A DNA stretch of 63,457 bases, filler included, from Basidiobolus ranarum (taxonomy: Eukaryota), in the NCBI GenBank assembly GCA_040143965.1. It is 2 parts of 2 records of this genome, joined end to end, with 100 filler letters (N's around TTAATTAATTAA, not from the genome) between each part and the next. Parts side by side here need not be neighbours in the genome. Positions count along the whole stretch, not along the records: positions 31,894 to 63,457 come from JASJQH010006964.1; 1 more part is not named here. One strand, 5' to 3'. The notes under the pieces are model-generated. The model saw nothing but the letters and a program-made list of their open reading frames with translations, was not told the origin of the DNA and ran no database searches. Numbering within the stretch: position 1 is the stretch's first letter; every line of letters starts with the position of its first letter. Positions 8,139 to 48,649 of the stretch are shown here, piece by piece. The position numbers were made by a program, and so were the translations under genes.

Positions 8139-11100
8139 TTAGTCATCCTCTTCCGAGGTTGAGGAATGCTCGGGTTCTGATTGAGCTTCATCTTCAGACG
8201 TGGGGTTAGATTCTTGAGAATTTCGATGTAAAAGTTCTTGATCCTCATTTTCACTGCCAGAGTCGTTAGCTAGAGCGTTGTTAACTTGTTGCAGCAGCTC
8301 TTCCTCTGTTTCCACTACATTGTACTTAGCCAAATCAATGACAAAGCCTGCATTCCTGCGATCCTCAGCTCGTTTTCTAGCCATCTCACGCTCCCGTCTG
8401 AAAAATTCATCATCATCTCCTTCATCAGAATCCTCAATAAACTCTATGGATTTATATACTTTAGTTGGCTCGATCTTCTTTTTCTTCTTTAGTCTTTTTC
8501 CGTTCTCATCTCGATGTTTGCGATGCTTTTTGGGCTTCTTGGATTTTTTCTTGGATTGTTTCAGAGGTTTCCCATCTGGACGTAGCGGATTCTCCATGAA
8601 TTGATCAATTATCTCCAGATCTTCAATTAGCTCTTGCTCAGTCAAATAGCTTGGAATGGTCCACTCCATCTGATCGGGCTCACCCTCCAAGCTAGGATGA
8701 ATGTCTGGATCTTCTTCGGTGAATTTGAATAATGTCAACAATTCTCTAAATTGGGAATCATCTGTCATGGCCAGTTTGTGAGCCTCTTCAGAGGTGCGTA
8801 AAACAAAGTTGGGCAATAGCGCTTGTTCATCCAAATCCATGTGTGCATTACTTTGCTTCTCTTCGACCGACTTGGCAATCATTGACTTAAGCCATTCTAA
8901 AAGCTCGCGGTGTTCATGGGCAAGAAGGTATCCAATAGCAACCCCGATCTTCTGGCTCCAACTTAGTTGTGTGGAAAGCATATTACGTATACTGTGGATT
9001 CCTGTGTCATCACCAGAGTTGTCAGACTCATTGGAGCTTGAATCTTCATCCTAAGAAGGACATTGTTTAACAAAGGATTAGTGACTTGTGACATAGGGCA
9101 CTTGGCTCCACATCATTCTATCATAAGGAATGCCACTTACTCTAGCTCTTTTTAATCTTGCAGACTGGTCATCTTCTTTATCTTCTTTGGCAGGTTCATA
9201 CTCGTCTTCTGGTAAACCATCGTCTCCGTATTGTATTCTGATACAATCCTGTCTATATTTTGGATACAATATCTCCACCGTAAGAAGCGGGTTCTTCTCC
9301 ATGGCTTTGAACATCTGCCTGAGGCAATGTCGACTGAATTTGACTAGCTCTTTGTAGGAGGTTGTGGCACCAAGTGGGTGACCACGCTGCGCTTGAATTA
9401 ACTCGTTGAACACATTCAGAACCGAAAGTTTGTAAAAGATAGGCTCTACTTTGCTTTTGATGAACATTCGATGGAACATTGATACAATATGATAAAGATC
9501 GTTCTCATTTAAGGATTGATGGGATTCCAGAAGAATGATATAATTCTCGAGAATTGATTCCCGCGCAAATCTCTAAATCAGGTAAATAGCCCATTAATAT
9601 TCCTTCTCAGTTTTTACATTAGCAATTCAATTCAACTAACCGACTCATACTCTTGAAACTTGAATAATTTCTCCGAATAGGAAGACTGGTTTGACGTCTC
9701 TTCTTCGCCTTGGCTTGCCTCACTCTCGGCTGGATTCTCATTATCCACTGGTACGGAGTTTTCTTCGGCATTATTGGGGTTTTCATCGGAATCCTTCTTG
9801 GCTTTCTTTCGTGCTTTTGTCTTCTTGGTCCTAACGAACATATAATTCTTAGATTTCGAGAAACGCTCTAGTAGCTTCAGTAGAACATGAACGAGCTCAA
9901 CCAGGCTTCGGAGGTAGCCGATGGACTGAGCTTTGTATTGTGATATCAACGTGATGAAGAGCTTTAGTATGGACTCCTCGTAGTAAATATTGTTCTGCAA
10001 TGCATTGGCCATTTCCTGATACGTTTCATCTTCAGAAGTATACATGACATTGAGAACGTGAAAGATGTTCTTGAAGCAGTCGACTGATGTGTAAAGTTCG
10101 TCCCAATTTTTCTCTTCCATGACTTTGACCATTCTACGTACAATAAACACAATCGAGGGAACTGTCATAATCCGGGAAATAGCATCGAACCCGATTCCCT
10201 GGGATCCCTCCAGCAAGCATGTTGGATGCTCCTTGATAATCTTGTATACGTTCAAAAAGTACCCATTTAGAAAAAAGAAATTGGAGTAATCCTCTTCTTT
10301 GATGGAATGAATCTCCCTCTCTAAATCGTATCTTACTGCGGTAAACAGTGGATTAAAGCAACTCTCTAAGAAAGCAATCCCAGTTTGTTTCATACAAAGA
10401 CGACCTTCTTCGGTTTTCAACTCAGCCATGAATTTGGTTTCCTTATTTCTTCTTTTGGGTGCCAATTTCTTTTTAGTTTTATCCAAGTTGGCGGCTAGTG
10501 ATGTATATCCTGCATCTTGGGAGTGTAAGACGATATCTTTCCCTTCTCCCAGATTTACCTTGTAAGCGCCACCGAATCGATGATGTCTACTAGGCATAGC
10601 AGCTAAACTTTGCTGCTTACGTAGATCTTCTTGACGTAGTAATTCCGCCAATTTATTTGCAGAAGGATTATCTTCTGGTGGCAACAGAAAAGCACTTGGA
10701 TCAAATTTTCCGAATAAATTGCAGAAGATCTCCTGGATTGTCATATTCCAAGAGAGGTAATCGGAATCATCTGCGGAGGATGCGAAATTTAGTAATAATT
10801 CCAATAAATGGGATTCCTGTAATCTCAAGATGATTCTTTCTTGAATAAAGGCTTGTTCGTATCTTTCAGATGAATCTTGAATTGAGGCCTGTCGATCTGG
10901 GATTGCGAGTAGATTTCGAATTAGATTTAATATAAGTCCGATGAATCCATTCTCACGTTCATTTCTTTCTCGAAGGGGTTTGGAAAGCATCTTGATCAGT
11001 ACACTAAATATCCCTTCTAATAGGCCCTCCCTTAAGAATGCTTGCTTGTGCGCCCTCAAATACTCCAATGACTCAAGAGGATATTCCGACTCTTTCTCCG

Positions 11101-11586
11101 TTTTCCAAGTAAGAGGCACGAACAGTTCAACTAAATTCATGAAGAGCAGAATAATCATCAATTATCAAATGAACACATATCAATGCCAAGTGATACTAGC
11201 GACATGTTAGATGAAACTCACTTACTGCAAGCTAAACAATGTTTTTCCTGAAAAGTGTTCGTCATCTCAGAGTTCAACAGGAATATGGGTATCAAATCCT
11301 TATTTAGTATGTCCCATTTTCCCAACAACCTAATGGCTTGTTTATCAGAGGTGTAATCTTCTTGTCTTAAGAACCGTTTCAGATCTCTGAGACACTCCAA
11401 ACACTCCTCTCCTAAGACATAAAGATATTTTCCTCCATCCTCTTCGTCAGTTAGAATACATTCTTTTGGTACTTCTTCTGGGATATTTTCACATTTCTCA
11501 AACCCACCTAGAGCTGAACAAACCGAGATTAAAAGGTATTTCAACTCAGGGTCGAATTGGTCATATTCGTTTTCTAACAAAACCAT
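8139..11586 (-). CDS. TOF1: Replication fork protection protein Tof1/Swi1/Timeless; multi-exon
   Basis: N-terminal TIMELESS domain (VCSALGG...YVLGEECLECLRDLKRFLR, LVELFVPLTW, LIRNLLAI, SRHHRFGG), MFHRMFIK region, and C-terminal YKSIEFIEDSD motif. Confidence 0.93.
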
Positions 11587-16332: not shown

Positions 16333-19300
16333 ATGACTGCTCTTGTGCGAGCCTTATATGACTTCGATTCTACTGATGATTCGAGTTTGAGTTTCAGAAA
16401 AGGAGACATTATAGAAGTAATAACGCAACTGGATTCAGGTTGGTGGGATGGTCTCTGTAATGGGTTGAGGGGTTGGTTTCCTTCGGAATTCGTAATTCCT
16501 GTTGACTCAGGAAACCTCGTGGAAGAGGTGCAGGTATTATATGTATAAAATATGTTTGATTAACTCAAGCTCATTAACTATGCACTTCTCTATAGGCACA
16601 CCAAGCAGACTATTTCGATCAAAAAGATGAACCTGCTTCAAATCGCAAGATGAGTCAGCCATATCCCAGCGAGGAGGGTTATGGAAACGAAATAGCCTTG
16701 CCTGAAAACTGGGTTACTCATTCAGCGGAAGACGGCACTTTTTGGTATTACAACAGTAAAACTAAGGAGGCTCAGTGGTCATATCCTGAAACACCCAGTC
16801 AAAATGACACTTCTAAAAATCAAGGTGAGAACATCCCTAAGCTCGTGGCTACTTCCAAAGCTGTGAATGACAAAATGAACGGGATATTTGATACTCTATC
16901 TTTTCGTAGAAAATCCAGGCAAATTGATGATGAAAAGGTAGGTATCCCCATCAATACACATCCTAGTTCCTTGTTCATGTTAATGAGAATTCGTTTAGTT
17001 ACCACCCAATTGGGGGAAGAAAACCTCTCCGAATGGTCGAAACTATTACTTCAACATGGTTACTGATGTAACCACATGGAATCTTAATGAAATAGATTGG
17101 GAAACTGGCTTGCTTGTAGGCTTTATATTCAGCATGTTTATTCTGACTCTGGACGCACTTCACTAACCAACCTTTAGTTTTCACAAAACAAGACAAACAA
17201 CAAGCGAAATTCCGCAATTTCAACATCATCCAACTCATCTTTTGGGAATGACGGCTCCTTTGGTGGAATGCCACCCTCTTCATACTCGAAAAATCGCCGA
17301 CCATCAGGATTTGTAGGGCCAATGGATGTAGAAGGATCCCTGCCAAACTTCAATTGGGCTAAACTAACTGCAAATATTGTTCTTGCTATTCATCGTTTGA
17401 ATCATTCGTCTAAGAGAAATATTAAAGGGAACTTCATTGAGCAAGCTTCTGATATCGTCGAAGCAGTAAGAATAATGTTTGTTTCTTCTCGGACAGAGAG
17501 TATGGATTCCCCTGTATTGAATGCACACCCAATGCTGAAAGCACATCATCATCATGTTTTCAATTCTTTATGTCGCCTTGTCCTCTTTGCTCAATATGCC
17601 TCAATTGTCTGGTGCTCACCAGATGCAGTTAGTAAGATGCAGCAAGATGCCAATGAGGTGCTACTTGCCACTAGGCATTTCATCACCGTAGCGCAAGACA
17701 ACGGAGTCAGTATCAGAAACATTGACGGACTTGAAATAAGAACAATGGAGCATGAGGATTTAAACCGACATAATGAGACCAACAAAAGTGGATTTCTTGA
17801 TGTTATTGACGGAGAGTCCAGCTCAGACTTCTTCTTAGACAAACATGAATTTCATACTGACATACTGACAGAACTTCTAACCTGTTCAGGCTCCGTCGCT
17901 AGGTCGACTAACCAATTGATAAAATATTTGATTATGGGAGACTTCAAATCCGCCTCTTTGATTGCCTTTACAAAGCAAGCTATTGCCGAGATTGGTCAGC
18001 TTCTAGCTCTTGCTGATGATATGGATTTAGAAAATGTCAACCAAGATATCGTTACCGACTTCAAGACTTGCAAACAATTTGTCTTTAACAGCATTGCCGT
18101 GCTTGTTCCCATTACTCAAAGGGCTACTGAGAACCTGGCTCCGGAGAATATATCAGAGCAACTGCTTGAATGTGCTCGACAGGTCGAAGTATCTGTCAAA
18201 GAACTGATTGTTGCTAGCAAATTCGTGATACACGAGAAGGAGATGAGTGAGCATATATCTCTATCAGATAAATATCGCAATCACACTCATCCGAACACAC
18301 CAGAGATTACTTTTCGGCCCAGACGTGCGATGTCTCTATCATTCTTGGGTCGTCACGTTGACAGAGCCTATGGATTGGGTGCTGACGAGGAAGACGGTGG
18401 TATTCCTATCCGAAGACGATTGGACTCTCATGTAAATATTACTGAATCTATAGAAAGTCATCACGAAGAAGAATTGGAGCTTCCTGCCAATACAAAGCAA
18501 AAGGAAAAGTTAAAGAAATTCTTCGGAGATGACGCTCCAAATATCGTAGTGAAGAAGAGTATTACTGAAGAAAGAACCTGTTACCTTGAATATGATTACG
18601 CGCCTAACGATATTGTATTTAACATGGAAGGTCAAGTCAAGGGAGGCACTTTAATGGCGTTGGTTGAGCGACTTACACTACATGACTTGCTTGGTAAAAT
18701 TATGTTTAGTCTTTTTGATTTCTGAATATTTACTTACACAAACATGACAAAAATAGATTCTACCTTCATCGCTACGTTCTTATTAACCTATCGTTCGTTT
18801 ACGACCACCGAGGACTTATTTGGCCTATTGTTTGAACGATTTGATATTCAGCCTCCTCCCGGATTAACCCCGGAGGAACATGAAATATGGACCGAGAAAA
18901 AGCTGGTTCCTATTCGTCTCAGGTATTTTTTTACTCAGGAGTAGTAGAATTTACTTTATGGCTAACCCTGTTGTTCATGCGCGTAAACAGAGTATTCAAT
19001 ATTATGAAGAGCTGGCTCGAAAGCTATTATCTTGAGAGCGAAGATGATTTTGCTCTAGAGATGCTCCGAGACTTTGCTCAAACCAAGATGCAAGACATCA
19101 TGCTGTTTGCGTCAAATCAATTGATCAAGCTTATTGATAAAAGGGTAATGATTACTTAATCTTCATAAGAGTATTTATTTCGATGCTTATACCAAAATAT
19201 CCACTTAGATGTCCGCCGAGGGAAACTTCCGTAAAATGGTATTGAACATGAGCCGCGAAGCTCCTCCTCCTATCCTGCCAAGAAACATGAAGAAGCTAAA

Positions 19301-24318: not shown

Positions 24319-25649
24319 ATGCGGAAGGATACTACCGAGTCTACATTAAATCTACTACACAATGGAAGTAATATGGTGGATGAATCTATTGTCATCGAGT
24401 CTTCTCGAACTTATGAAGTAGAGCCAAAAGCAGAAACCCCTCCCAAAGCTATGCGCATCGCCGGTATCATTTTGTTGCTTATGTGTATTTTGGCATTTAC
24501 GGTTCAATCGGTAAGAGATATATCCATTTGGTACTTCATTATTACCTCATCTAACCGAGACTCTAGGAGGTGGCCCATCATCTTCAAACCGACCTGGGCT
24601 ATACACAGCCATATTTTATCTTGTAAGAGTCTATTTCTCGCATAATTATCATTTTACCTATTTTCCGTTGTCATATTAACCAGTATTGTATATTCAGGTG
24701 GGTCGCTCATTCGTCATTTATGTTTTTGTTTCCTATTCAGTTTTTAATTGAAAAGCTGAAGGGTAAAAGTTATAAAAAAACCTGCTTAGAAATTGTCGCT
24801 GATTCCAAAAAATTACTACAAGAATATCGCGGAGATCGTAAAGAGGAGCCTTCGATTAACTCTACCGTACTGCATCTAACCTACACCTCTATTGCTTTAG
24901 CCACATTACTGACCGCGGGATCTTACTTGTGGTATGTAGCCCTTGGGCTAACCACCATGGCTAGATTAACCGCCATTTATAATACCTCGTGCTTCTTTGC
25001 CTACGGCTTTTCCTTGTTTATACTGAACGAAAAGTTCATGTTTTCTAAGATCATCGCTTTGGCCGTCAGTATAGCCGGAGTAGTGGTTATGTCTTTTGGT
25101 GAGAGCCATGCCGAATCGAGCACCTTTGCCTCTTACAAAGCCACTATGGTCCTTGGTGATGTTGTCTCATGTGTATGCGCTCTGTTGATAGGCTTGTATG
25201 AAGTTGTCTACAAGAAATATACGGTGATACCAGAAAAACCCTCCATTCTATTTACTAATTTCTTCACGGGGCTAATCGGGGTTATGACGTTTTCCTTACA
25301 ATGGATACCAATTCTCGTCCTTCATCTGACCGGGGTTGAACCTTTCGTCGTACCAAGTAAAGAAATATTGACGTATTTGTGTTTGAACGCGTTTTTGGGA
25401 GTGGCTTACAATGGATGCTTCATGAGTGTCATCACCCTGACATCCCCCACTTTTGCCGCCTTGGGTATTATTCTAACTATTCCGGCTGTTGCGATGGCCG
25501 ATTTCCTAGTCAATGGTATCTCAGTTACCACTATAGAATTAGTGGGTGGAGCGTTTATCATTGCTGGCTTTGGAATATTCGGCTATGCAGACACCAAAGT
25601 AAGTGAATACAAGAAGGTGGATGTCGAGATGCAGGAAACGCAAAGGTAA
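24319..25649 (+). CDS. EamA/DMT-superfamily transporter, SLC35F-like; 3 exons
   Basis: About 10 hydrophobic helices; FTVQSEVAHHLQ..YTQPYFILWVAHS, YLWYVAL, TAIYNTSCFFAYGFSLFILNEKF, GLYEVVYKK, LTSPTFAALGIILTIP. Confidence 0.88.
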
Positions 25650-31893: not shown

Positions 31894-32186
31894 TGGTAAC
31901 TGTTTGCTATATAAAACCCAATTCAAAAGCAGTTTGCTTCTACTAATATTTATTACCCATAAGTACACAATAATGGGGTTCTTCAAAGAAAAGCGTAAAA
32001 ATTAAATATACACAAAAGTAGTTGGTGATGGAGAATTAATGTAAAATAGACATAGAAGATGATAAACAGAGGGAGCAATGCGGTCTTGGGTAAGCAAATA
32101 AATACAAGGGTATACTGTTGATGGTAGGATTCAACCTAAATATGAGAGCTCTAAGCAACTTATTCTCCTGGCTGTAAAGACTAGAT

Positions 32187-33245
32187 TTAGAACCCTAAAT
32201 TTAATTTACAGCTGTGAATTTTTGCGTGACGGCGTAGATTGCTCACAACTGAGAAATGGCGTCCACATCCCTCATGTGGACATTTGAATGGCTTCTCTCC
32301 GGTATGAGAGTACATGTGAGTATTTAGAGAACTTGGACGACTAAAGCCCTTCTGACAAATGGTACAGTGGTACTTTTTGGTCGATGAAGACATTGTTTTA
32401 GAGCTGAATGTAGACATCATTGCGTTCAGAGGGCTTGCCCTCTTTTTTCGAGAAGATGTCTCCTTTAGCTTTGAGTAACCAGCCCTATATGGAATATTCG
32501 AAGAATCCTTTACAGGGCTTTGGTACATCTGCTCCAACGGGTATTTGTAAGAATCAAAGCAAGCTTCATGGTTGAAATTTAGCATATTTTCACTTTTTCC
32601 AAAGTAATGCAAAGGATATTCCATCAGTTGATTCCCGCAACTAGCATCCGAAAGATTGGATTTCTCTCCGCAATAAAAGTTTGTTCCGTATAAGGAGGAA
32701 AACTCAGGTTGCATAACAGATGACAGAACGAACTCGTCTTGCGAATTCGCTTGTGGCATTGACTCTGATAGATGGGCGCACTGCACTGGAGAATCTACCA
32801 ATTGAGGGGACTTTAGGATATATTGTTGAGGCTCAGGAGAGTCTATATTGGAGAAGGGTGAGCCAAAAGAGTCGCAGCTATCTGGAAGTGACTCTTTTTT
32901 ACTATAGAACCCTTCATGATCATCTTTGATTGGCATTTGATAACAATCAGCAGAATAGTAGATCAGGTCTTGATCGAGCTGAAGGGAAGGGGACGTGAAC
33001 ATCATGAATTCTTCGTCCTCCAGCTTAACATTTAGTTCTCCGTACAAAGAGCTGCAAACGCTGTTTGGCGAAGAGGAAGCTTCGTATGGCGTAAGAGGCC
33101 AAAGAGATAGCATAGGCTCATTCACGTCCAGCGGTTCGTTCACATCGAATTCAATGGAGAGTTTTGGCTTCTCTTGGCCATAGTTTGTGGCCAGATATAG
33201 TGGTTTTGTGAAGTTGTAAGGGGATTCAAGAGTAGAGTAGGTCAT
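32187..33245 (-). CDS. C2H2 zinc-finger transcription factor (two C-terminal fingers); intronless
   Basis: CTICQKGFSRPSSLNTHMYSHTGEKPFKCPHEGCGRHFSVVSNLRRHAKIH; acidic, Ser-rich N-terminus. Confidence 0.93.
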   Translation of the reverse strand: MTYSTLESPYNFTKPLYLATNYGQEKPKLSIEFDVNEPLDVNEPMLSLWPLTPYEASSSPNSVCSSLYGELNVKLEDEEFMMFTSPSLQLDQDLIYYSADCYQMPIKDDHEGFYSKKESLPDSCDSFGSPFSNIDSPEPQQYILKSPQLVDSPVQCAHLSESMPQANSQDEFVLSSVMQPEFSSLYGTNFYCGEKSNLSDASCGNQLMEYPLHYFGKSENMLNFNHEACFDSYKYPLEQMYQSPVKDSSNIPYRAGYSKLKETSSRKKRASPLNAMMSTFSSKTMSSSTKKYHCTICQKGFSRPSSLNTHMYSHTGEKPFKCPHEGCGRHFSVVSNLRRHAKIHSCKLNLGF

Positions 33246-34250
33246 CTTTACTTCAAAGACGCGTCAAGATTTACTCGAAACGAATATTCAGGGAAAGGGA
33301 AGGATCAAGGGAAATCAAGCAAAGTATCTAAATATTGCCGCTGTTAGAATGGATTTATCCAGCCATATATATATCTTTAGGAGATCCCTCGATTTTGAAT
33401 CAATAATCAGGAAACGGTCTGAATGTAAAGCTTTGGGATTAACGCTCCAGATTCTTTGGGGAACCTTAACGAGCCATCGAATCATCAATGGTATCCTTGC
33501 GTAACGCAACGGTTTTGAAGATCCTCTTGCCAAGATGCGCTCAATTGCCATCATTTTCAAAAGTAGGGGTGGTCCTCAGCTCAGTAGGGGGTAGAGGAGA
33601 GTGGATTGAGAGGTGGAGTGAGGTGGAGCAAAGCGATAGTAAGTGGGGAGGACTACTACAAGACTCCATTCATCATACCCCACTAAAATAAGAGAACCTG
33701 GATACTACCACCCAAGTGGCCAATCAGCTTTAACACTGTATAATACATATAACAAATAGCGAGCAAGTCTAACCGGGATCAGTATCCAGATAGCTCTCAG
33801 GTGCCCAATGTGTAAATCAATCAAGTGCATTCAAAATGGACACTTCTGCCATTTGCCATTGCCATTTCCCATATCCACCATCTATACCGGTCTTTGTTCA
33901 ATGGTGACATTCGAGTTTGGAGAGTGACACGACATTATCCAATTCTCAGCCATTGAACTGGTCGCCCTGTTTGAGAAGTTTATTTATGCGATGGCAGTTG
34001 GATCATCACAACTCGCCTCGCATAAATGCACAAACATCTGCTACTCACAGCATCGCTTCATGTTTATCTGTTTATCAATTGAGAGCAAGAACTGTGAGAG
34101 TAATCAAGAGTAATGGCTGAGAGAGCGTAAGATCCAGAGCCTCGGGAACCTCTGCTACAATCACCCCGGAATCAACTTGGTCGCCCCTTTCTACGGTTGC
34201 TTATCAATCTATGCTAGTAGCATATGTTCATCAAATTTACGCCATCCAAG

Positions 34251-34323
34251 CACTGCTGTTTGTGCATCTCTGGTTGGACATCTCTTGTTGTCCATCGTTG
34301 GTTGGGCATCACTGGTTGTGCAT
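34251..34323 (+). repeat. Degenerate 14-bp tandem repeat, about 5 units
   Basis: CACTGCTGTTTGTG / CATCTCTGGTTGGA / CATCTCTTGTTGTC / CATCGTTGGTTGGG / CATCACTGGTTGTG / CAT. Confidence 0.75.
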
Positions 34324-36557
34324 AGGGAATAATCTAGATCGTATGTGAAATTCCATCAAAGGTGCATCATCACCGGTACCGGTGCCAAAACTCATGCAAC
34401 AATGATCCATTTATCGGCAGGAGATTTATGCTACTTGAGATCTATGTTATTGGGCAGAAGGATCATCCATCATTATGTGGCGAAAATACCAGTTTTTGAT
34501 TGACGCTTACTCTTCAACAATGCCATAATAATTGACAGAATTTAAAACGTGCATCTTTCTAGCGCTGTTGATCCAATCTTGTCGCAATGGATATACTCAA
34601 CCACGGCTAAAATCACTGATGCTGGGTGCACAATCGAGTAGTCAAAGGATACCAAGTCGCCATATCCACCTCTATTGGTGCACACTTAGTTTAAACATTG
34701 TTAGTACGGAATTCTTGGCATAGAATGTCGAAATGGGCTTAATCAGGTCTTGACTCTAGATCAGAGGCAGTGGTAAAGACGAGTCCAGCATAGGATTACA
34801 TCACCAATCGACCATTTGGTGACCTTATATTGAAGTTAATAAATCCTGTCAAGAACCTGACTAACAATGATAGCCGTGTACAGAGGTTCTTGATGCCCTT
34901 GCTCATGTCGACCTACTCTTTTTTACTTGCTCATCTGGTTAACGAAATCACATCATTTGTCCAAAATCCCACTCAAAAACCAGCTACCGGGTACAAAGAT
35001 CACGCTTCTTTCGGCAACATTCCACTGGTCAACTGTCCTTTATCGCAACCAGTATTCACCATACGCAGTCCTACATGTATGGCACTTATTACTACCAATA
35101 TATATTCGATTGTTACTTACTATGTATTGCGTTCCTTTATTACTCATTTCAGATCATTTCCTAACTTTGATTTAATAACAAATAAGCTTATAGTGTATAT
35201 ATATTTGGACTTGGTAACAAATAATGTGTATATAATAAGCCACCATGCATTGGTAACTGCCCATATCCGCCATATCAATTGTGTAACCTAGCATCCAGTT
35301 CAGCCAGGTGAGTTTTCTCTGGCAACAGATGAAGCACTTCGGAGATGATAGTAGAGGGGGAAGCTAAAGAAACCCTCCAAGCGACAATTTATTATTTGCT
35401 ACCCATCAATCAACATGTAACGCAGAGGAATGGACAATGAAATACAACCTCATATGGTCACAAACTAGCCGGCCTACCCCAATAGTGTGATGTATAGAAG
35501 TAATTTACACTCAATCCCGACTGATCCCTTTTGGTATTGTCTCAAATACCTGGTTCTGTCCCCACCAGAGATGCCAGGACTGCACAGGATTTAAATGACA
35601 TTGCTGTTTGACTGGAATGCCAAGTGAAAGGCATACAGTTAAAACGGTGTTTATGCCTGGCAAGTCGAAACAAACGACACATAAAGCCATTCTGAATGGT
35701 AATGGGAGGAGGGTAGTCGTTAATAAATCTACGGTGACCTTTTAAAAAAGGCGTGAGTATGATTAATGCTTATTCGAAGTAGCACTGCCAGTAGCACCAC
35801 CCACTCCTGTACATACTGGAAAATATCAAACATGGTGGTCTGACTCTGTCGATTATGAATTTCTATAAACCTGTGGTACAATCAAGCCAATTAGAGTGAG
35901 AGGGATAGCAAATAGGAACGGTAAGAGCAAATAAGAATCGTAAGGGCCGCTATGGGTGGTACAGAATTGAAGATCAAACGATCAATTACTATTACTGTCT
36001 CGAGTTAATAATTTCACTGGGATTTATTAACTTCATATTCCCACCGCGGAATCCCAATTATTGACACTGGTCTATTGACACATTACCCCTACAAGTGATT
36101 ATCTTGCCCACAAGATTATCGGTTAGGATTGAGAGTAATCAACCATGAAAATTCCGAACACGAGCCAAACGCGAGCCAAATACGAATGCGTTCAGGCTCA
36201 AAACACTCCCAAGCTACGCTGATGATGTTGATTTGGGGATGATTTGACTGTTGGTACTTGTTGAGGAATGAGAGTTTATTATAGGTCATGCAGTGCTCCT
36301 TGCACTGCATATTTATACCAAGAGCCAATAGATTTGTAATAGATAAATATGAATGTACAATGGAAAAATTAAACTCAATAAATATGACAGCCTTCGATCG
36401 ACCCATGAGACAACGGTCACTAGCGATTGGAAGTTAATATCGTGTGAGAGGGTGGGCTGAACATTAAGGAATATTTACCATAGTATAGGTTCTTAAGCCC
36501 TTCCTTGGGGTTCTTTCTAATGGCGATGTAGATTTAGAAGTAGAGTGTGGGACAGCA

Positions 36558-39125
36558 TCAACCTCGTAAACTTTCTGCTCGTTAACGGCTAACATTAGTA
36601 CTCTGAAAATCTATGAATCTTGAATAAACCTCTCTGCACCTTTGTTCCATCCACAAATTGGATGACCTTTCTCCCATGGATGTCTACAGTTTGAATGGTA
36701 CCATCGGAGAAGATGGATTTTTCCTAATTTAAGAGGGATATTAGCCGGAGAAAATAGCTGGTACTACTTTTAAAAAGAAATGCAGACCTCGTTGTTTGGA
36801 TATATATATTGTATTGTAGCATCGGGAAATCTCACTTCAATAGTGCCATCCACATGATGCTTCTCTAGTTGTCCATTAGCGAATTGAAAGATCTCGGTTT
36901 TGTCGGGCAAACTTGAGTGCACAGTCTTAGTTTCCGCGTAATAATAAACGATCTTTCCATCCTCAAAACTCTCTTTGGAATCACCGTTGACGAATCGTAG
37001 CTTTATATAGCCGTTTGGACGGTGTTCTTTCGTCGTTCCATTACGGTAGGATATCAACCGTGTACCATTGCCATAAATACGTTCACATTTTCCGTCAGCA
37101 TAATGGACCTCTTTCAATTCGTCTACTAAGCCCAACTCAGAGCTAAGTTTGTCTAGCTCTTTGTTTTCAAATTCAGCGCTATTGCTCTCCTCATTCACTT
37201 TTATCTGAGTGGGATTTGCAGTTGGCGCCGAGGTGCTACCTTCTGTGTTACCAGCAACAGTTACGGACTTGCACGATGCGCTATTACTATCAACAGTTAT
37301 TTGATCTAGTTTTTTCGTCAGCAAAAGATTTTGCTTTGTTAAAAGTTCAATTGTTCGCTCCAACTCCCGAGGTGTGGCATCAGGTTTAGGCTAGAGTATA
37401 CTGGTTAATATCAAAAAAGAATGAAATCTCGTAAAGAAAGCAATCACCTTAGTATTTTGCCCTATCAGCTTCGTGTTTAGATCGTTAATTATTTGTTGGA
37501 ATTCCTCATTTCTTCGGGACAATGTTATAATCCTGTCTTTAAGTCGAGCGGATTCAGCGTTGGATTTGATTTCTTTCTTTTTCAATTTTTCGTTTAATTC
37601 TTTTACTCTTTCGTGAAGTAGCTCAATTTCCTGACGTTCTCTAATGATATACATTAGTAAAGCTTAGTATGATATATCCTGGATAGAACTTACTTTTTAC
37701 TGGCCGTCGTCGAAGTTACTAAACGATGCTTATCCAATGTACGTTTTTCACGTTGGTTGTTCAATTCCATTTCTTGGCGTAGTTTTTCAAGCTTGGTGAG
37801 CTCTTCGACCTTGTACTTCTCAAACATGTCCTTTTTTATAAGAAGACCGATAAGCAAAGTGGCCTTACATTGAGATTATATTGAGGTAGAAATCGTTATG
37901 ATACCTTCTCAGTTTGTAAAATTTTAACATTTCGAGCGTGATCTCTTTGCAATCTTTCAAAATCCATCGTATTGTACTTCTCCTTTATATTTTCATTGGA
38001 ATGCTTCAACTAAATTGGAGTGGTTTGAGTGATTATGCAACTTTAAGAAGTTGACATTTGTCAAAAAACTTACTCTAAGTTCTAATCCTCTGTTGGAGTA
38101 TATTGGAGATGATGAAGGGGACTTGATAGGCAATCCAGATTCGTTACTAACAGGTGAGCGAACCTGCGTAGGTTGTGGTAATTTCGAGACTACTAAATCA
38201 TATATTTAAAATGAAATAATTAGTACACCAAGACAAAGCTTGAATAGCCTTGCAGTCATACCTGGCATCTTATTAAGCATAAAAGCTCTCTGTGAATTTG
38301 CTCGATTCGGATTCCAACTTGGTGAAAGACGTGTATGTTTATCCCGTAATTCTTCAATAGGCTTAGTCATTGACTCGCTACTCAGGTTAGAGAAACTAGA
38401 TTCTAGTAAAAATGTAAGAGTAATTTTTAAAAAAATGAAATTTTTTTATGTTTGGCATGTTGTATGAAGTTCGTGAAACTTACCTGAAGTTGCTGATTGA
38501 ACCTTTTCCATTCTATCATTGCAGGAAGTGGCCCTTGAAATCTTAACGGGAGTATCAAAGTCCTAAGATTAATTAATGGAGGGATTTCATTTACTTGTTT
38601 CTCAAATGAAAACTTACGGAAGTTGTCTCTGAGGCGCTGTCTATATCTGAATCAACGTAAGGACTATGAAAACGGATATTAGCTTTAATTCCACTTTAAT
38701 GGGAGTGTCACTTTAAGACATACTCAGTACGAAGTTTTGGCCATTTAGTTGGAGCCGGACTGGGTTTTGGCGGGTTGCTTGCTACTTCCTCTTCCAACGC
38801 TAAAAAGCCTTTCAAGGCTTCCTCTTCCCATCTCTTCTTAGAGGCCCATTTTTCGTGAACTTTTGAGCGTTCCTCCACGAGGAAATCTTTCTTGGTTTCC
38901 AAATGTTCTTTTTCTGTGTAATATTTTAAACTTGGAAACACTGAAATATTACTATTCGTACTTGCAAAGGAACTTTCAATGGGTGCATTATCTAGACCGT
39001 CTCTCTGGACCTTCAAAGTCTATTGTAGAGGGTGTTAATGAATATAATATAAAACCTTTAACCAAATGAAGCGTACTCAAAGGCTTGTTTTAAAAAATAG
39101 AGAAATATACCTCTTTATTGACCAT
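36558..39125 (-). CDS. SAS4: Centriole assembly protein SAS-4/CPAP (CENPJ) orthologue; multi-exon
   Basis: C-terminal Tcp10/G-box repeats (HYADGKCERIYGNG...YRNGTTKE...FVNGDSKE...VYYYAETKTVH...FQFANGQLEKHHVDGTIEVRFPD...FSDGT). CPAP-type coiled coil (KKERQEIELL...LKKKE...RLKDRI...RNEE) and an EEALKGFLALEEE motif. Terminal exons are inferred. Confidence 0.9.
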
Positions 39126-39830
39126 TACTCAGTAAAGTGAAGTAAATCGTATGAAGACAAAGATAATCAATTTATGGAATTGAAGCTAGTATGATGGATG
39201 CTGGTATTATTAAGTTATCGGCTAATAAGCTAATTGAAATATTCCTATTTTAGTTTAATCTGTGTTGTTTGTTGATTTATTAATCCGTTTTGGTTTGAGA
39301 TGTTCACAATGGTACACTCTTACTTGTTAATTTGATCATAAGGAACCACGTTTTGAAATTAGAAAAGCAACTTAAGGGGCTATGCACGTGGGTTTCTTTA
39401 AGAAAGAGAAGATTCATCAGTAACCAGTAAGTATTCTTGAGTAGCGTATTCTTGGCCCTGTTTCCAGTTGGCTATTGTTCGAATTGTTAGTAAATCTTGA
39501 AGCAGCAGAGTACATAAATGCTTGGCAGTCCATTGTTCAATTCAAGTAATCGCATATATATTCGAAGTTGTCTGGTGCGAATCTCACGACATTATTAACC
39601 CCTGGAAATTGACTGAGAAGTCACCAGAACTATCTCTCCTATAGCATATAGTGACTGACAAGAATAAATGCAAATATATGCACACCAAGATTACTCTACA
39701 AGAATCAACACAATCCAACTTCATCCACACTCTCTTGTATTAGTTGAATTCTTTCGCATTATAAACAGAGGCGATTGATCCCAAAAAAACGATACAAATA
39801 TTTATTTCTTTGTAGTTACTAACAACGACA

Positions 39831-42800
39831 TTACTCATTTACTGCCCACGAATCCATACTCTCTAACTCCTCGAGAGAAAACCCTTCAATAATCGGCACA
39901 TCATTAGTGGCTATATCTGTTGGTGTTGATTCTCCCTCGGGGGTAGCTTTATGCGAAACTTGCAAATGATTAACCAACAAAGACTCAATCAATTCATTGT
40001 TTAGGCCAAACTCCCAATGTTCAATTTGGTTCACGACTACCACGCTCAAAGGATCCTGATCTTCTTCCTCTTCAACCCCCATCTCTTCCAATGATTCGAA
40101 GAATTTCTCAAGAATGATCTTCTTCGCATATAAGCCACGTCTCAATTCTGTATGAATTCTTTTATATCTGAACACCAAGGACGCAGCCAGATTTTCCCGA
40201 CCCAGATCATGAATCTGTTTGACAGTGGAATGGATCAATCTTCTTCGTAACTTCATCACTGTCTTTTCAGTTCCCTTAGGCCCAGAGTTACCATTGAATT
40301 GGAATAGTGAATCAAGCATAGGTTGAGAGATACGTGTCTCGAGCATCTGCTCGAATAATCCCGTGACTAGCAATTCCACATGCAAAACTCTATCATTCAA
40401 CACCGTATCCGACAATAACTCGTCTTTCTCTTCTTCTTTTTGTTCAAGCAACTTTTGAATTTCCTCAACAACGGTTTGTCGTGTTTCCATAGAGTTTGAC
40501 AATAGACCGTGATGGTAATAACTGATCGTGTGTTGATTGGTAGCAAGTAGCTGTAACAATGACGCTTCATACTAAAATGTTGAACTTCCGTGAGAAATTG
40601 AATTTCACTTAATTGTTGATGAGAATACGAAAAATACCTTTATGCAAACGTCATTTGCAGCAGGCAGAGCCAAACGGATTAGCAATACCCACTCAGCGTA
40701 CTGGTTACTAATCATCCATTTGAACACATCGAACCAACACTCGAACAAGAATTCAGGTAGGGCACGATCAGACTCTTGGCTCTCGTTTGTCATGGATACC
40801 TCCACCTCAGCCACCCGACTTAAGGTCCAACCTCGAAGTAATTTCACTAGTCCTTGGTAATGACTTAAGCTGTTGGACATTCCCAACAGTTTCTTAAATA
40901 GCTCACATCTGGCTGAGTCGCTCTCCAAGTCCTCTCGAGTAAGCTATACAAACAAGAGCAGTAATTAGATTCTTGAAACCTATTTTCGAATACAAGTACA
41001 AGCCGTTAGCAAACCGTGTATTTCCAAGTGTCCTTCAATAGAAGCTCCAGTCTAAAGAATCCGATCTCTTGCCCAATTTCTACTTGTCCAGTAAATTCCT
41101 AAGAAGATATTCGTCAAATCAGGTGTAAATATAAATCTATATGCAAATACTCATCTAACCTCTAAGATTTTCTCCTTCTTCCGAATATTTATCAACTCTG
41201 AAAAGTGTCTAATACTCTCCAGCAAGCCCGATGGTAAAGTTTTGTTTGCCTCTAGTTCGTCGAATGACTTTTCCATGGATGTGGAAATTTTCATGATGTC
41301 ATCCGGTGAATATTTGTGATATGGAGGGAACTTTGTAGACTCTACTGGGTTGGATAAATATGGAAGGGAGTAAAGTATATAATAGTAACAAGCGACTAGC
41401 TCATTATGTGACGTAGACTCGAGGGAATCAAAGAATTCACGAGCTTCAGAAGGGTTTCTCAGAGTCAACAAGTAAGAAAGTGAAAGAGGAACTTGCCCTT
41501 TAAAGTTTCCTTGGGCAAGATCCAGTAACACTGGATCCAACTCTGTTGCCGTGGTAGCTGGTTGATGCTCGTCGATTTGTCTCATACAAGCTAATCGATA
41601 TATCATCCCCAGAACTGCATTCTTAGGATCATAGCAGGAGTCAGAATCTGAGGATATATCATATGGAGAGGTCTTGGTTGGTACTGGCGAAGTAACAGGC
41701 TTCCAATAAAATTCATAACGATCGTTAGAAGAATCAGTTTGTCGATTATCTTCCGGAATGAGGTGATGCAGCTCATCGATCGCTTCATTTAGGTTGAATT
41801 CTGATTCGTTAGACATACTTTGAACTTGCAACTGCTCCTTCAGTGAGGTTACATCTTGTTGAGTTTTCAGTGCTTTCCAAAGCTTAATGACAGTGTAGAT
41901 ATCCTCTTTGGGGCAGATACTGGAGGCAAAACTCAAAAGTTGAATACGACGATTTAAACCAATTGAATTTGAGATAGCACCAAGATCATAACAAACCCTC
42001 CAAGCCATCTCTCTGGCTTCCAGCATTCCGGTAGGCGAGGTTTGTCGGATCTTCTTACCCAAATGCATAAGCTTGTCACACATGGCATAAGCTGCCTTGA
42101 AATCTTTTCGTTTAACTGATGCCCGTGAAAGCAAAGCGTAAACCTTAATTTCAGCAGAAGGATCTTCCCTGTACCCGAGTTTATGAGCCAATTCCAAAAT
42201 CCTGCCAGGTGCTTTGTAAGCCTTCGGATGATCATCTAGAATTCGTGCGATCAACTCTAATCGATTTGGCGCTAACCGAATTTGAATTGGTAGCATTGGA
42301 ATATTTGGCTTATGCTGTAGATTATATTCAGCTAATACGTGAGTGGCTTCGATCAAATCCAGCTCCTCCTTTAGTGCTGGGGAAGTAGGGAGAACCTTTA
42401 AACTGTTCGAAATAATGAGAGAACTGAAATGGACAAGAAAATAAATCTTCCAACTACTGACCAATCATATGCCATCTTCATAAACCCTCCATTCATACTT
42501 CCGGATTCTGCATTGTCGAAAAACTCTCTTGCGACATTTATGACCAACTCTTCAGCAACCGAGGCTGGCAATGGAGGTGACTTGTCGTGAGGCAAAAGCA
42601 AATCTCTTGCCAAACGAAAACCTATATTGAAGGATTGTTAGTGGTTTGAGATCGCCGTTACATCAAAGTAACAGTTAGTTAAATAAAACGTACCTCCACA
42701 GCTCAGTAGCCCGGACAGGAATTCTTTGTATATTTCCTCTGTTGAAATCTCCCCTAATACGCCATTATTATGCAAGTCTATCATAGCCTCCAGTAACAAA

Positions 42801-45800
42801 GTCCATTCATCTTCGTTTTCGAATTTACTTCCCATTGTGTCAACGCCACCACTTGCATGTCGAGCTATTCTAACCAACAGCTGTTTCTGAATGGGATAGC
42901 TTCCCTCGCTGTCAAGATACCATCCTAGTGTTATCGGGATATCGTAACGTTCAAGGATATCAGAGGCGTTAAGATGAATTTCAAGCTTGTTGATAATGGA
43001 TTGAATATCCTTTTCGTTCATTTCTTTGAATAATCCGAAATACTCCTGCGATGATAACTCCGAAAACTTGGACTCACTAGGAATGGCCAACGACCTAGCT
43101 CCGTCAATGTCGATTTCAAAGTCAGGAAGACACTCGAAAATCTGATTCATAAGTTTCCACTGATTAGTGCTCTTCGACCCATATAGACAAGCCAACGCAA
43201 GTTGACACAACAATAGATCAGACGCGATAATTCTATCGGAATCGAGTAAGGTTGGCTTGGAGTCGTTAAAAGCTAAGTAACACCAATCCAGATGGGAGAC
43301 GGATAGCTCTAGGATGTAATCATATAAAATAGACATCGGGTCATGAACAGACTGGTCATCGGAATGATCGCATTGGTTTTTCAAATAAGGTATTACGAAG
43401 GCTCTAATGTCTCCCACAATCCTATGTTCATTCGTTTCTCGCAGAATCAGTTCCACAACTTCCTTTGGCGTTAGCTTTTCAAAGGATTCCAGTGTAATTG
43501 TCAGACACACCTCCGGCGAATCGGGATAGCATTCATAAACCAACTGCGATAAAGTGTGGAGATTGTCTTTTAGGTCTCTCAAGCCACCAACTCCGTTCTC
43601 ATCCCCAGCTTGGATTAACTGATAAGCGTGATGAACTTGACCGGAAACATTATCGATATCATGAGCACGTGAAATATACCAGTTACTAATGGTGACACCA
43701 GAAGCGGGATATTCGACTTTGTCGTGAGGAAAAGATATACCCTGATTGCTCGTCTCTTCACTTGAAATATCAAGTTGAGCCAACAAGGAAGGATTCTCCA
43801 CTGGATCCTTGTCACGCCATGCTTGATCGGGCCACAGATTCTCCTCATCTTTTTCAGTATTCACCTTAGGCAGGAAGTCTCGGTATGAAAGAGGATCAGC
43901 GATTTCCGGTATTTGATTCAGGATGGCGAATCGATATGGTAAGAGCTCAGATCCATGCCTTGTAAACAGAATTTTCAATGGTGAATATTTCTCAATCGCA
44001 GCGTATTGTAAGGCTTGCTCGATAATGTTCACTTCCCGGAAGTAAATGAAATCTTCTGCAAATGAGCCCTCCTCTACAAGTTGCTCCTCATTAGCTTTTG
44101 AATATTCGTTTCCGTCGGCTGAGTTCGTGCTGTTGGCTTGATTTTTTGAGGGCTTCTCGACAGTATCCATGATTTCGACCATGGTCTTCAAACGATCCAA
44201 ATACTTGAGAAATGCAACTCTGTATCTACACTGCAGCAGTTGCTCGCTAGAGAGCTGACTAAAGTCGTCTTGAAATTGACTCAAAACTTCTAAAACGTGG
44301 GCAGTCTCTTTAAGACCATACTCTAACAAAAGCTTTGCCGCCTCTGTATCATCAGGAATTCTCATCAAGCAAGTCTCAATTACCCAGTTGCGGTCTTGAA
44401 TGTTATCCAAAAACTTGGCAATACTCTTTGCGCTCACCTTAGCTGCATTCCACTGAGCTTGATATACGACATCTGAGTTTAGACTGTATATCTTAGCAAT
44501 GGAAAGAGCATCCTCGTACTCCAATGCTAATACCTTTCTCTCCAACAAATCTATAGGCATAATCTCCGCGAATTGAACCAACCTCAAACACTTTCTAGGT
44601 ATAGTTATATATTTACCCTTTGCTGACTTTGAATCGCCTTCGAAATTCCACAAGAAAGTATTTGTGATATAATACAATGAACTTCCAATAAATGAGGATA
44701 CGTGTTTGAACAAGGGTCGGGCCGTTTCTAACTCATCTTCAAAGTCAACTTCCTCATTTTGTGAAGGATGGATATATGTGAGTTTATTATCACGATGCAG
44801 ACGCGCTCTAAGCATCAGCGTTTCATGCTCCAGCAGATAAAATCGATTGTCCAAAGGCTTGGAAATCTCTAAGTTAGATTTCAAATGTTCGGGTGAATCA
44901 CCTAGCATATTCAGATAATTCGAAATTTTGAAGATCAACATGGCTCCATGCTCATACCCAAGAACAATCGAATCTGAATTTGAATCCCACCACTGAGCAG
45001 TGACAACTCTACCACTATCCAAGGTAGGATTAACTGGGTCGGCTTTGGTACGACTCTCAGGTTCCCTCTTCAATTTTTCTTGAAATTCGGAGAAAGTGAG
45101 ATTCTTGTGTGTTCCTGGCCTAGCGAAATAGGTCAACTCCTCTCGCTTCCAATGATGGATCAAGTCAACATTGGAATCCTCCAGTATTTTCCAGACTTTT
45201 AAGGTGCCTAAGAAATCTAAGGATAGGAGATGACTACCATCTGGTGAAATAGTGACACAACGAACCACCTCATCAATGAAACTTTTCTTTCTTTTGCGCA
45301 AAGTTGAGACGATATTTTGAATCTTGGTAACAAATCCTACTTCCTCGGGTTCGTCTTGCATTTTCAAATTTGAATCATTAGTAATCGACTCATCAATAAC
45401 ATCCCCATCAAAGTGGTGATAAAATGGTGGAGTAGAGGACATCTTCCACCCAGACATAGATGGAAAGCATTGGACGCTTTCTGGAGACTGATTAGAATCA
45501 TTACCAATAGGGTCTTTTGAGGCGCCTTTACCGGCTATATACAGTACTCTGGTTAGTGGGTGGATGCTTGCACTCACGACCGTTTCGTAGCGAGACTTGA
45601 ATGAATACTTATGAAAAGGTGTGAAAATCCCCGAATCTGAAACACCTTCTTTAGGATAAGAAGAGCCAAGGTTCTTGCGATAATTCAATGGGATTTGGAT
45701 TTTTTCCAGTTGGCTTTCTTCCGTGAAATAATTAAACAGATAACTTCTTAATGTACCATCGTAGGTGATGCTCACAAGTTGATAACGATATGCAGCACCT

Positions 45801-46492
45801 TCAAACTGGATGGCTTCTTGATTCCAAAAGGTCGAATCGAAGAGGAACAATTGTGCAACAGGCTCGATGAAAAATTGATTACCTTCGGCATCCTCAGAAG
45901 TGTTACTTTCACTAGTTTCAGTTGACAAAGTACCTGGTACTTGTCCAGTAGGTCGCGTGCCAGCCTGTATCGAGAGAACCAATTGTCCATTTTTATCTAC
46001 AACTTCAATAGACCCATCACTTCGGGATATAGCAAGTAAATGAGAGTCAGGGCTCCAAGTGATACATCTCCATTTTGAAAAAGGATCTTTTTTGGTGTGA
46101 TACACTGCGTGGATGGTGCTAAAATTTGCCACATTCAAATGTTGATTGTCGGTCACAAATCCTTTCAAAAATCGGATTTCTAGTTTACTTTCTTGATAAA
46201 TGGCTAGTTGTTGAGCATTTGGAGAAGTACTTAGTTGCCAATCATTTTTCAGTTTGACCAGTTCTTGAATTAGTACTGGAGGGACTGTTGTTGAAATGAC
46301 CAAGCCATCAAAAGTACGTGCCAGATGTGACGTAAGATATTGAAACCATCCTTGAGAATAGTTTGTACCATTCAGATAGTTTTGACTACTTAGTTCTCCA
46401 GCTTCCTCTTCTTCAGGATCCCACTCGGCTACCACAGTGAGATCATAGAGTAGCCTATTTTTGTTGTTGTCGAAGTCTTTAGATTTTTCCAT
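39831..46492 (-). CDS. SEC39: NBAS/Sec39 (NRZ/Dsl1 ER tethering complex subunit), long form; multi-exon
   Basis: LLYDLTVVAEW N-terminus, propeller-like WRCITWSPDSHLLAISRSDGSIEV, EYEDALSIAKIYSLNSDVVYQAQW, ELLPYRFAILNQIPE, WYISRAHDIDNVSG, AREFFDNAESG, MLPIQIRL. Start taken at MEKSK (inferred). Confidence 0.92.
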
Positions 46493-47386
46493 CGGTGCTT
46501 TTATTGATAAATTAGTAAGATATTGGCATTCCAGTGTGGCCGACAGTATGAATAAACCACTTGGAAGATGCTTTGTCGTATTTCTAATAGCAATACGATT
46601 CAATAGGAATCATTCCTCAAATACCATGAAGATCTGTGTCGTAACCTTACTCTACCACGACATCATGATTCCAAAACATTCCGATAATAATATAATATCA
46701 AGTTTATGAAATAAATATAGGTATGTTGATACTATGCTATACTTGAGTTTGCCTGGAAATTTCCTAACCCTAACCCTTCAAATGAAAGATCAACATAGCT
46801 CTACCCCTCCCCCGTATAAACAAAAAATCTTTCTAACCTGAATGATTACTCAACATCCTTTTTATTCACGACCCTAAGTGAGTTCTAAATATTCCAATAC
46901 CACTTAAAAACCGGTTTTAATTTGGTCACTATCTTTTGAGTAGTCTTTTCTCTCTACAAATCTACACATCTCAGAGAATACAAACACTTCAAATCAATTG
47001 AACAGATTCTTTCCGGTTTTTTGCCAATATTTATCTTTATTTAGCAATAGTAGTATACAGTCCATTTAGACTGAGGTAGTTTGATTTTCCTTTATTTGTT
47101 ACTTGTGAGTCGAAGAAGAAAACCACTCTAACTTATTTCTTCAACAGTTAACTTAGTACGAACTTTGCATGAAGAATCGTTAGGTTTTGGAAGAGTTTAA
47201 GCTACAAATAATCTCGCGTCTTTTCACGGTCCTTTTTTATTTTATTGTAATTTACATCAGACCATCATCTGTTGGTTTTTTTTCTTATTGGTTTTATTTT
47301 GGTCACCATCTCCCCTTTGACTATTCTTATTTACAAAACACGAAACCCTCCAAAGTACACATAAACCTCAAGGGGAATTTTTGAAA

Positions 47387-48649
47387 ATGGGAAATAGCTC
47401 ATCCAAGAAAAAAAATAATAATTCCGAGGAACGGAAGGGTCAGACAACCACTTCAGACTCACCAGAGGAAGATTACGAGGAAGAGAATCTTGACTCTATT
47501 CTGATCCGGTCGCCAGATCAGCTACAAAATCTGTTAGGTATTGAAGCCATAGCTGCCCCAACTGTTACGTCCATCGGGTCTTTAAATCTATTCTCAGGTG
47601 GAGATAGACTCAAATCACTTAATGTTGACGATATGATAGCGAGACTTTTAGAGGCTGGCTATTCTGGTAAAGTATCCAAATCCCCATGCTTAAAGAACGC
47701 CGAGATTATGGCCGTTTGTCAAGCTGCTAGAGAGGTTTTTCTTTCGCAACCTTCTTTAATAGAACTTTCGCCGCCTGTCAAGGTTGTAGGGGATGTACAT
47801 GGACAATTCACCGATTTACTACGTCTGTTTGATATGTGTGGATTTCCGCCTTCTGCCAATTATTTATTTCTTGGGGATTATGTGGATCGTGGACGTCAAA
47901 GTTTAGAAACCATTCTGCTATTGTTATGTTATAAAATCAAGTACCCTGAGAATTTCTTCTTGTTACGCGGAAATCATGAATGCGCCAATGTTACCCGAGG
48001 TAAAGTGAGTTTTGTTTGGTCATAAACAAGCATGCGGCTAAAGTGTTGTGTTATGTCATGTTTAGTGTATGGATTCTATGATGAATGTAAGCGTAGATGC
48101 AATATTAAGGTCTGGAAGACTTTTGTAAACGTCTTTGATACGCTACCTATTGCTGCTTTAGTAGCGTCCAAGATCTTCTGTGTTCATGGAGGTCTGTCAC
48201 CTTCACTTATGGCCATGGACGATATCAAACGTATTGAGCGGCCCACCGACGTTCCCGACAGTGGGTTACTTAGTGATTTGCTGTGGAGCGACCCTACGGA
48301 GACATCGGCTGAATGGGAAGACAATGAGCGAGGGGTGTCCTTTTGCTTTGGAAAGACAGTAATTGATAACTTTCTTATTACCCATGATTTGGATTTGATT
48401 TGTCGAGCTCACATGGTCGTAGAGGATGGATATGAGTTTTTCAACGGTCGTACGTTGGTAACCGTTTTCTCCGCGCCCAATTACTGCGGAGAATTTGATA
48501 ATTATGGTGCGATCATGAACGTAAATGAGGATTTATTGTGTAGCTTTGAGTTGTTGAAGCCTCTAGACACGTCGGCTTTAAGGCAGCAACTGCAATTCAA
48601 TAGTAAACGTCAGTCACCACCCAACTATAATGTACGCCAATCGGTTTAA
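47387..48649 (+). CDS. PPZ1: PP1-related Ser/Thr protein phosphatase PPZ; 2 exons
   Basis: MGNSSSK myristoylation start; [22 protein letters not shown] (PPZ-type); [45 protein letters not shown]. Confidence 0.93.

Follow-up and report, generated by a model that had tools for sequence, protein, structure and literature searches.

A conserved CPAP/SAS-4 orthologue in Basidiobolus ranarum, a fungus of a genus without flagella

The subject of this report is a gene for the centriole protein CPAP (also called SAS-4 or CENPJ) on the minus strand, at positions 39125 to 36479, of a stretch of DNA from the fungus Basidiobolus ranarum. The stretch, which we call the window, comes from NCBI GenBank assembly GCA_040143965.1 and measures 63,457 nucleotides; it consists of two parts joined by 100 filler letters, and positions 31,894 to 63,457, where the gene lies, are from record JASJQH010006964.1. 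Protein mapping, profile and structure comparisons and a tree of the family together show, within what such comparisons can establish, that this is the B. ranarum orthologue of CPAP/SAS-4/CENPJ and that a genus lacking flagella has kept it intact. Because the host is non-flagellated and the gene is intact and apparently maintained by selection, the protein may fairly be regarded as a candidate component of the nucleus-associated organelle (NAO) of Basidiobolus.

The NAO is a small microtubule-containing cylinder that lies next to the nucleus. It reportedly holds 11-12 singlet microtubules, not nine. Reviews treat the centriole-like cylinders seen in zygomycetes as a possible stage between the centriole and the spindle pole body and call their molecular composition unknown. 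Published surveys report centriole-assembly proteins to be absent from non-chytrid fungi (Ito et al. 2019; Ito & Bettencourt-Dias 2018), a generalisation that a well-conserved CPAP in Basidiobolus contradicts for one genus. In their text these surveys do not mention the genus Basidiobolus, and the name does not occur in the main text of a study of 61 flagellar proteins in 43 species (Galindo et al. 2021), whose supplement was outside our scope. The literature on the genus and on centrioles that was covered deals with cytology, classification and phylogeny, with subscription journals and supplements outside its scope; in it the genus is described as non-flagellated and no centriole-gene survey of Basidiobolus was found. 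What is new here is the presence of CPAP in an unexpected host. The protein has already been deposited in NCBI and UniProt as K7432_003051, under the automatic label 'Centromere protein J C-terminal domain-containing protein', and it is undiscussed in the literature searched.

The CPAP gene and the protein it encodes

The deposited protein could be placed residue for residue on the window (630 of 630 residues, 100% identity), which gives a gene of 12 exons with a product of 630 amino acids. In the order of translation the exons lie at 39125-39111, 39019-38726 (plus 2 nucleotides), 38662-38618 (with 1 nucleotide before it), 38541-38485 (plus 1), 38403-38263 (plus 1), 38190-38074, 38009-37905, 37830-37693 (plus 2), 37639-37448, 37390-36788, 36723-36640 and 36574-36479. 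The 11 introns between them are roughly 50-91 nucleotides long and all have GT...AG ends, and no in-frame stop was found across the 12 exons. The coding sequence ends at 36479 in the NCBI model and at 36464 when it is read on to the TAA. The Pfam domain Tcp10_C was matched in the exon stretch 36770-37390 (E = 3.7e-22, 78 bits against a cut-off of 36) and in the exon stretch that follows it, 36595-36723 (E = 3.1e-9); on the whole protein the score was 106.3 bits against the same cut-off. A protein search with the largest Tcp10_C exon recovered an orthologue of 485 amino acids from Basidiobolus meristosporus, where it is encoded on a 235-kb scaffold. The initial annotation of this DNA had proposed a CPAP/SAS-4 gene free of obvious disabling stops, and on both counts it was right, as the Tcp10_C exons, the exact mapping and the frame, open through all 12 exons, demonstrate. 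Its start codon at 39125 is also correct, and its 3' end, placed at 36558, has to be moved to 36479 (36464 with the TAA). It had spoken of the host conditionally, as Basidiobolus-like or else zoosporic; the complete protein match and the NCBI lineage, which places B. ranarum in Basidiobolomycota, decide for Basidiobolus.

An AlphaFold2 model of the protein was built with an alignment of 18 sequences, and the regions described here are all encoded on the minus strand. A predicted N-terminal helix spans residues 41-86 (38777..38914), with a predicted local distance difference test score (pLDDT) of 85-95 over residues 51-90. It is followed by a Ser/Pro-rich stretch of about residues 97-221 that is predicted to be disordered; its main part, about residues 120-218 (pLDDT < 50), is encoded by exons 4-6 (38074..38541). 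The coiled-coil region, residues 219-403 (37289..38091, interrupted by introns), is modeled as three helices, 219-300, 304-367 and 376-403, and the HMMER alignments with CPAPs of chytrids and animals extend over it, starting at about residue 190-240 and running through residue 601. A short helix (residues 440-454) stands between the coiled coil and the G-box. The G-box, or TCP domain (Tcp10_C), comprises residues 456-601 in three exons (36566..37132) and is modeled as a single beta-sheet, with 16 beta-strands over residues 460-601 at pLDDT > 90. It is about 42% identical to the G-box of zebrafish CPAP (PDB 4bxp, E = 4.3e-36) and also matches that of Drosophila Sas-4 (E = 1.6e-22). In a Foldseek comparison with the PDB the 11 best matches were all CPAP/Sas-4 G-boxes, and the root-mean-square deviation to the zebrafish domain was 1.2-2.8 Å.

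Eight residues of zebrafish CPAP are given as STIL contacts in its crystal structure, F978, Y994, Y996, H1003, T1005, F1015, Q1019 and E1021 (Cottee et al. 2013). Their counterparts in B. ranarum are F502, Y518, Y520, H527, S529, F539, Q543 and E545, so that seven of the eight are identical and the eighth is changed from T to S. These positions, which fall in 36863..36994 (minus strand), were counted by hand along the HMMER alignment to the zebrafish G-box, and the query positions were verified by script. E545 corresponds to human E1235, the glutamate that is mutated in microcephaly. At the level of sequence, the STIL/Ana2 CR2-type binding edge of the G-box is conserved. Over more than a billion years this edge has hardly changed, which points to a partner of the kind that it binds in centrioles.

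The N-terminal helix contains an acidic CPAP motif, W63...F77-L-A-L-E81 (residues 63-81, window positions 38848-38792, minus strand). The pattern W-x(9-16)-[FY]xxLE was present in 57 of the 174 homologues, where shuffled sequences would lead one to expect 2.2, and was distributed over 13 of the 23 fungal-clade sequences and 44 of the 151 others. Aligned with the CPAPs of chytrids, a sponge and a coral, the motif reads W...(E/A)L.(E/G)F..LE. It is recognisable in a multiple alignment and not by N-terminal profile search: the profile of the Basidiobolus N-terminus, run against 171 proteins, gave just one borderline match, to Caulochytrium (E = 0.045). The motif is separate from the LID helix of PN2-3. 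From these data we treat W...EFxxLE as a signature of the CPAP family; to our knowledge it has no published definition and no assigned function. The acidic FLxLE motif and the CPAP-type coiled coil that the initial annotation had pointed out were therefore both well chosen, the motif being real and CPAP-specific and the coiled coil being supported by the predicted helices and by the alignments to chytrid and animal proteins. In vertebrate CPAPs the W...EL.EFxxLE motif is located at about residues 450-600; in chytrids and Basidiobolus it is near the N-terminus.

Descent of the gene and selection on it

A HMMER scan of 1.84 billion representatives clustered at 50% identity gave 1716 matches at E <= 0.001, and the best 150 of the 1716 were used. 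After the query, the best match among these was B. meristosporus (E = 1.5e-206) and the next was Spizellomyces (E = 3.7e-56); the B. ranarum protein is only 34% identical to its best chytrid match. Among the named sequences of the best 150, Basidiobolus is the only non-flagellated fungal genus with a CPAP. A divergent copy in another zygomycete is possible, and word-index homology searches, which returned 5 matches each (the alignment of 9 fungal sequences being crowded by coiled-coil words), were uninformative on other zygomycetes.

A FastTree phylogeny was calculated from the G-box segments of 157 proteins, and names were assigned to 30 of the representatives in it. The alignment is short (about 140 amino acids), and branching within the fungal clade is weak. 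Both proteins of Basidiobolus belong to a fungal clade with 21 leaves (support 0.93), in which all 16 of the other named leaves are zoosporic and three more are unnamed metagenome proteins. The zoosporic leaves are Spizellomyces (two), Rhizophlyctis, Borealophlyctis, Caulochytrium, Zopfochytrium, Chytriomyces, Obelidium, Podochytrium, Entophlyctis, Polyrhizophydium, Lobulomyces, Polychytrium, a Neocallimastix cluster, Paraphysoderma and Blastocladiella. Because the Basidiobolus pair splits off outside the zoosporic groups that were sampled, and is nested in no zoosporic order, the tree shows, to the extent that a G-box phylogeny can, that the gene was inherited vertically from a flagellated fungal ancestor.

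Selection was judged from protein identities in a comparison of B. meristosporus with B. ranarum. The G-box (120 of 146 residues, 82%) and the N-terminal motif region, residues 16-119 (81 of 101, 80%), are the most similar, followed by the coiled coil (111 of 166, 67%), whereas the linker from coiled coil to G-box is only 35% identical (16 of 46). Since the two domains are at 80-82% against 35% for the linker, and since the G-box has kept about 42% identity to that of a fish, the Basidiobolus protein looks to be under purifying selection and selectively maintained.

A possible role at the nucleus-associated organelle

Of the relic-centriole interpretation offered by the initial annotation, the part that stands is an intact and maintained gene in the non-flagellated B. 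ranarum, and with it the candidacy of the protein for the NAO. We think it about as likely as not, at roughly 0.55, that CPAP still does a centriole-type job at this organelle. The protein would dimerise through its coiled coil, the conserved aromatic and acidic edge of the G-box would hold a proline-rich partner of the STIL/Ana2 kind, and CPAP would anchor and stabilise the short NAO microtubules, as CPAP in animal centrioles joins the scaffold inside to the wall of microtubules.

The comparison with known systems bears on how far such a likeness may extend. Vertebrate CPAP/CENPJ (4BXP, 4BXR, 4LD1; human MCPH6) shares with the Basidiobolus protein the G-box, the upstream coiled coil, the W...EFxxLE motif and seven of the eight STIL-contact residues. 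However, it has about 1300 amino acids, so that the Basidiobolus protein is about half as long, and it carries a tubulin-binding PN2-3 module with LID and SAC parts as well as a full G-box; its hosts also differ from Basidiobolus, which is without a canonical centriole or cilium. Drosophila Sas-4 (4MPZ, 4BY2) likewise has a G-box with an Ana2-binding edge, but it is more distant in sequence, and its role in centriole assembly is proven, that of the Basidiobolus protein putative. Outside the genus, the Basidiobolus protein is most closely related to the chytrid and blastoclad CPAPs of the same fungal clade, such as SPPG_02988 of Spizellomyces punctatus and H9P43_005152 of Blastocladiella emersonii. 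They have 467-944 amino acids and the same order of motif, coiled coil and G-box, and the eight fungal-clade homologues scanned were, like Basidiobolus, without a match to PF25779, the Pfam model of PN2-3; their hosts, unlike Basidiobolus, are zoosporic, with true centrioles and flagella, and Spizellomyces differs further in having a recognisable N-terminal LID motif (E = 0.004 with a PN2-3 profile built from 87 homologues).

Several observations weigh against a centriole-type job. Of the 192 residues in the zebrafish construct, the G-box of B. ranarum covers positions 4-148, and its final 50 or so residues, about four strands, are gone in both Basidiobolus species; the domain had initially been described as complete, which it is not. 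The truncation is common to both species and is thus a feature of the genus and not an error of the gene model. At least 51 further residues, with the terminal strands, follow in 10 of the 16 non-Basidiobolus rows of the G-box alignment. In both Basidiobolus proteins a Ser/Thr/Pro-rich tail of 29-32 residues replaces the last strands; in B. ranarum it consists of residues 602-630 (36479..36565, minus strand; pLDDT < 50), and 15 of its 26 aligned residues are identical in B. meristosporus. A hidden exon for the missing end was not found by tblastn with 10 homologue tails over positions 34000-40000, where 56 of the 86 matches fell on known G-box exons and the other 30 had E values of at least 1.2. 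PF25779 has no match in the CPAP of either Basidiobolus species, and a strict SAC pattern, present in 91 of the 174 homologues overall, is found neither in Basidiobolus nor in any of the 23 fungal-clade sequences. There is also the case of Coemansia reversa, like Basidiobolus a zygomycete without flagella and with a small microtubule ring in its microtubule-organising centre (MTOC). Its spindle pole body contains a centriole-like cylinder, proposed to be a degenerate centriole, but unlike Basidiobolus with its well-conserved CPAP it has no orthologue of SAS-6, CPAP or CEP135 in the published search (Ito & Bettencourt-Dias 2018), so that such cylinders may not need CPAP. Finally, if SAS-6, STIL and CEP135 should prove absent from Basidiobolus, a centriole-type mechanism would lose its partners.

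The failure to detect PN2-3 has to be read together with its occurrence in other fungi. PF25779 matched none of the eight fungal-clade homologues scanned, which are zoosporic or unnamed, and it matched a sponge CPAP. With the profile from 87 homologues, the Basidiobolus proteins gave E values of 0.24-0.97, a LID-like match that is not significant. Because chytrid CPAPs with a LID-like motif give no match, PF25779 looks animal-biased; two such proteins (P0006 and P0047) are among those without a match, and two others (P0092 and P0155) were outside that scan. Judged by these profiles, non-detection also occurs in fungi with real centrioles and so weakens the test, not the claim. In the chytrid CPAPs the LID-like stretch, PI.P...[ST]FEELL, lies within the first 50 or so residues, and no SAC motif is present under the pattern used. 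Six chytrid gene models stop where the Basidiobolus G-box stops (0-5 residues further), which may reflect incomplete gene models or a shortening that has recurred. Taken together, the missing last four strands of the Basidiobolus G-box and the lack of a recognisable SAC motif for tubulin binding suggest a simplified mechanism.

Is CPAP needed for the NAO microtubules at all? A true and conserved orthologue might have been kept for a non-centriolar job, such as pericentriolar-type scaffolding at the MTOC or the control of microtubule growth, with the microtubules of the NAO independent of it. We hold this to be a serious possibility, though a tentative one. When fission yeast is made to express Drosophila SAS-4, the protein locates to the spindle pole body, which is free of centrioles, so CPAP-type proteins can dock on fungal MTOCs (Ito et al. 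2019); the undetected PN2-3, the truncated G-box and the Coemansia cylinder with no CPAP found would fit such a job as well. It accounts less readily for a STIL-binding edge with seven of eight residues identical after such a long time, and for the fact that the only named non-flagellated fungal genus found to keep CPAP, among the best 150 of 1716 matches, is one known for a microtubule-containing NAO.

The remaining explanations make the gene either ordinary, useless or foreign. If Basidiobolus had kept a broad set of centriole and flagellum genes, owing to a motile stage that has escaped notice or to a loss that is very recent, CPAP would be an ordinary member of that set. The placement of the genus is indeed unstable, sometimes beside the zoosporic Olpidium in phylogenetic studies (Chang et al. 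2021; Gryganskyi et al. 2013), but no flagellated stage is described in the literature covered on the genus and the window holds, besides CPAP, only housekeeping genes; we consider this explanation very unlikely. Equally hard to credit is a decaying or silent relic without present function. The shortened C-terminal end of the G-box could be taken for decay, yet the truncation and the replacement tail are common to two species, the frame is open over 12 exons with canonical splice sites, and the identities of 82% and 80% in the domains against 35% in the linker, like those between the G-box and its zebrafish counterpart, speak for a working protein. Contamination, or acquisition from a chytrid by recent horizontal transfer, is the least probable of all and barely worth entertaining. 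Apart from the genus itself, chytrids come closest among the best 150 matches, with Spizellomyces at the head; but the gene sits among ordinary fungal genes in the window, a second species carries it on a scaffold of 235 kb, the identity to the best chytrid match is as low as 34%, and the Basidiobolus pair lies outside every zoosporic order sampled in the tree.

That CPAP has been kept does not by itself make the organelle a centriole. That the NAO is a genuinely reduced centriole, still built around CPAP, seems to us rather unlikely. If it were, it would be a natural case of a microtubule cylinder that depends on CPAP and has escaped the nine-fold SAS-6 cartwheel, and a living intermediate between the centriole and the spindle pole body; the disappearance of the last four G-box strands in this genus might then belong to such remodelling. 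For the question of how fungi swapped the centriole for the spindle pole body, Basidiobolus CPAP is a first molecular handle on a centriole-like organelle, and whether the NAO is a relic centriole becomes a question open to ordinary experiment. The shortened G-box of Basidiobolus is, in addition, a natural truncation for structural work on how this sheet builds centriole walls.

Neighbouring genes and minor observations

The other genes seen in the window are ordinary housekeeping genes, none of them centriolar or ciliary, and SAS-6, STIL/Ana2, CEP135/Bld10, POC1, delta- and epsilon-tubulin and PLK4 were all without a gene within these 63 kb. On the minus strand are a gene for TIMELESS/Tof1 (9632-11161), one for a C2H2 zinc-finger protein (32187-33263) and one for NBAS/Sec39 (41151-46609). 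The plus strand carries genes for a DUF7783 protein (17178-18725), an EamA-type transporter (24627-25649) and a PP1-type phosphatase that is split by an intron (47321-48649).

The part of the Ser/Pro-rich disordered region of B. ranarum CPAP that exons 4-6 encode, 105 residues, has no aligned residues in the gene model of B. meristosporus; a true indel, alternative splicing or differing gene models might each account for this. In the G-box tree, the shortest distance to Basidiobolus from outside the genus is that of a metagenome protein of 641 amino acids (P0091), yet this protein groups with the Neocallimastix cluster. It is encoded on a contig of 2007 nucleotides that is nearly all open reading frame, and the contig is probably an intron-free transcript or gene.

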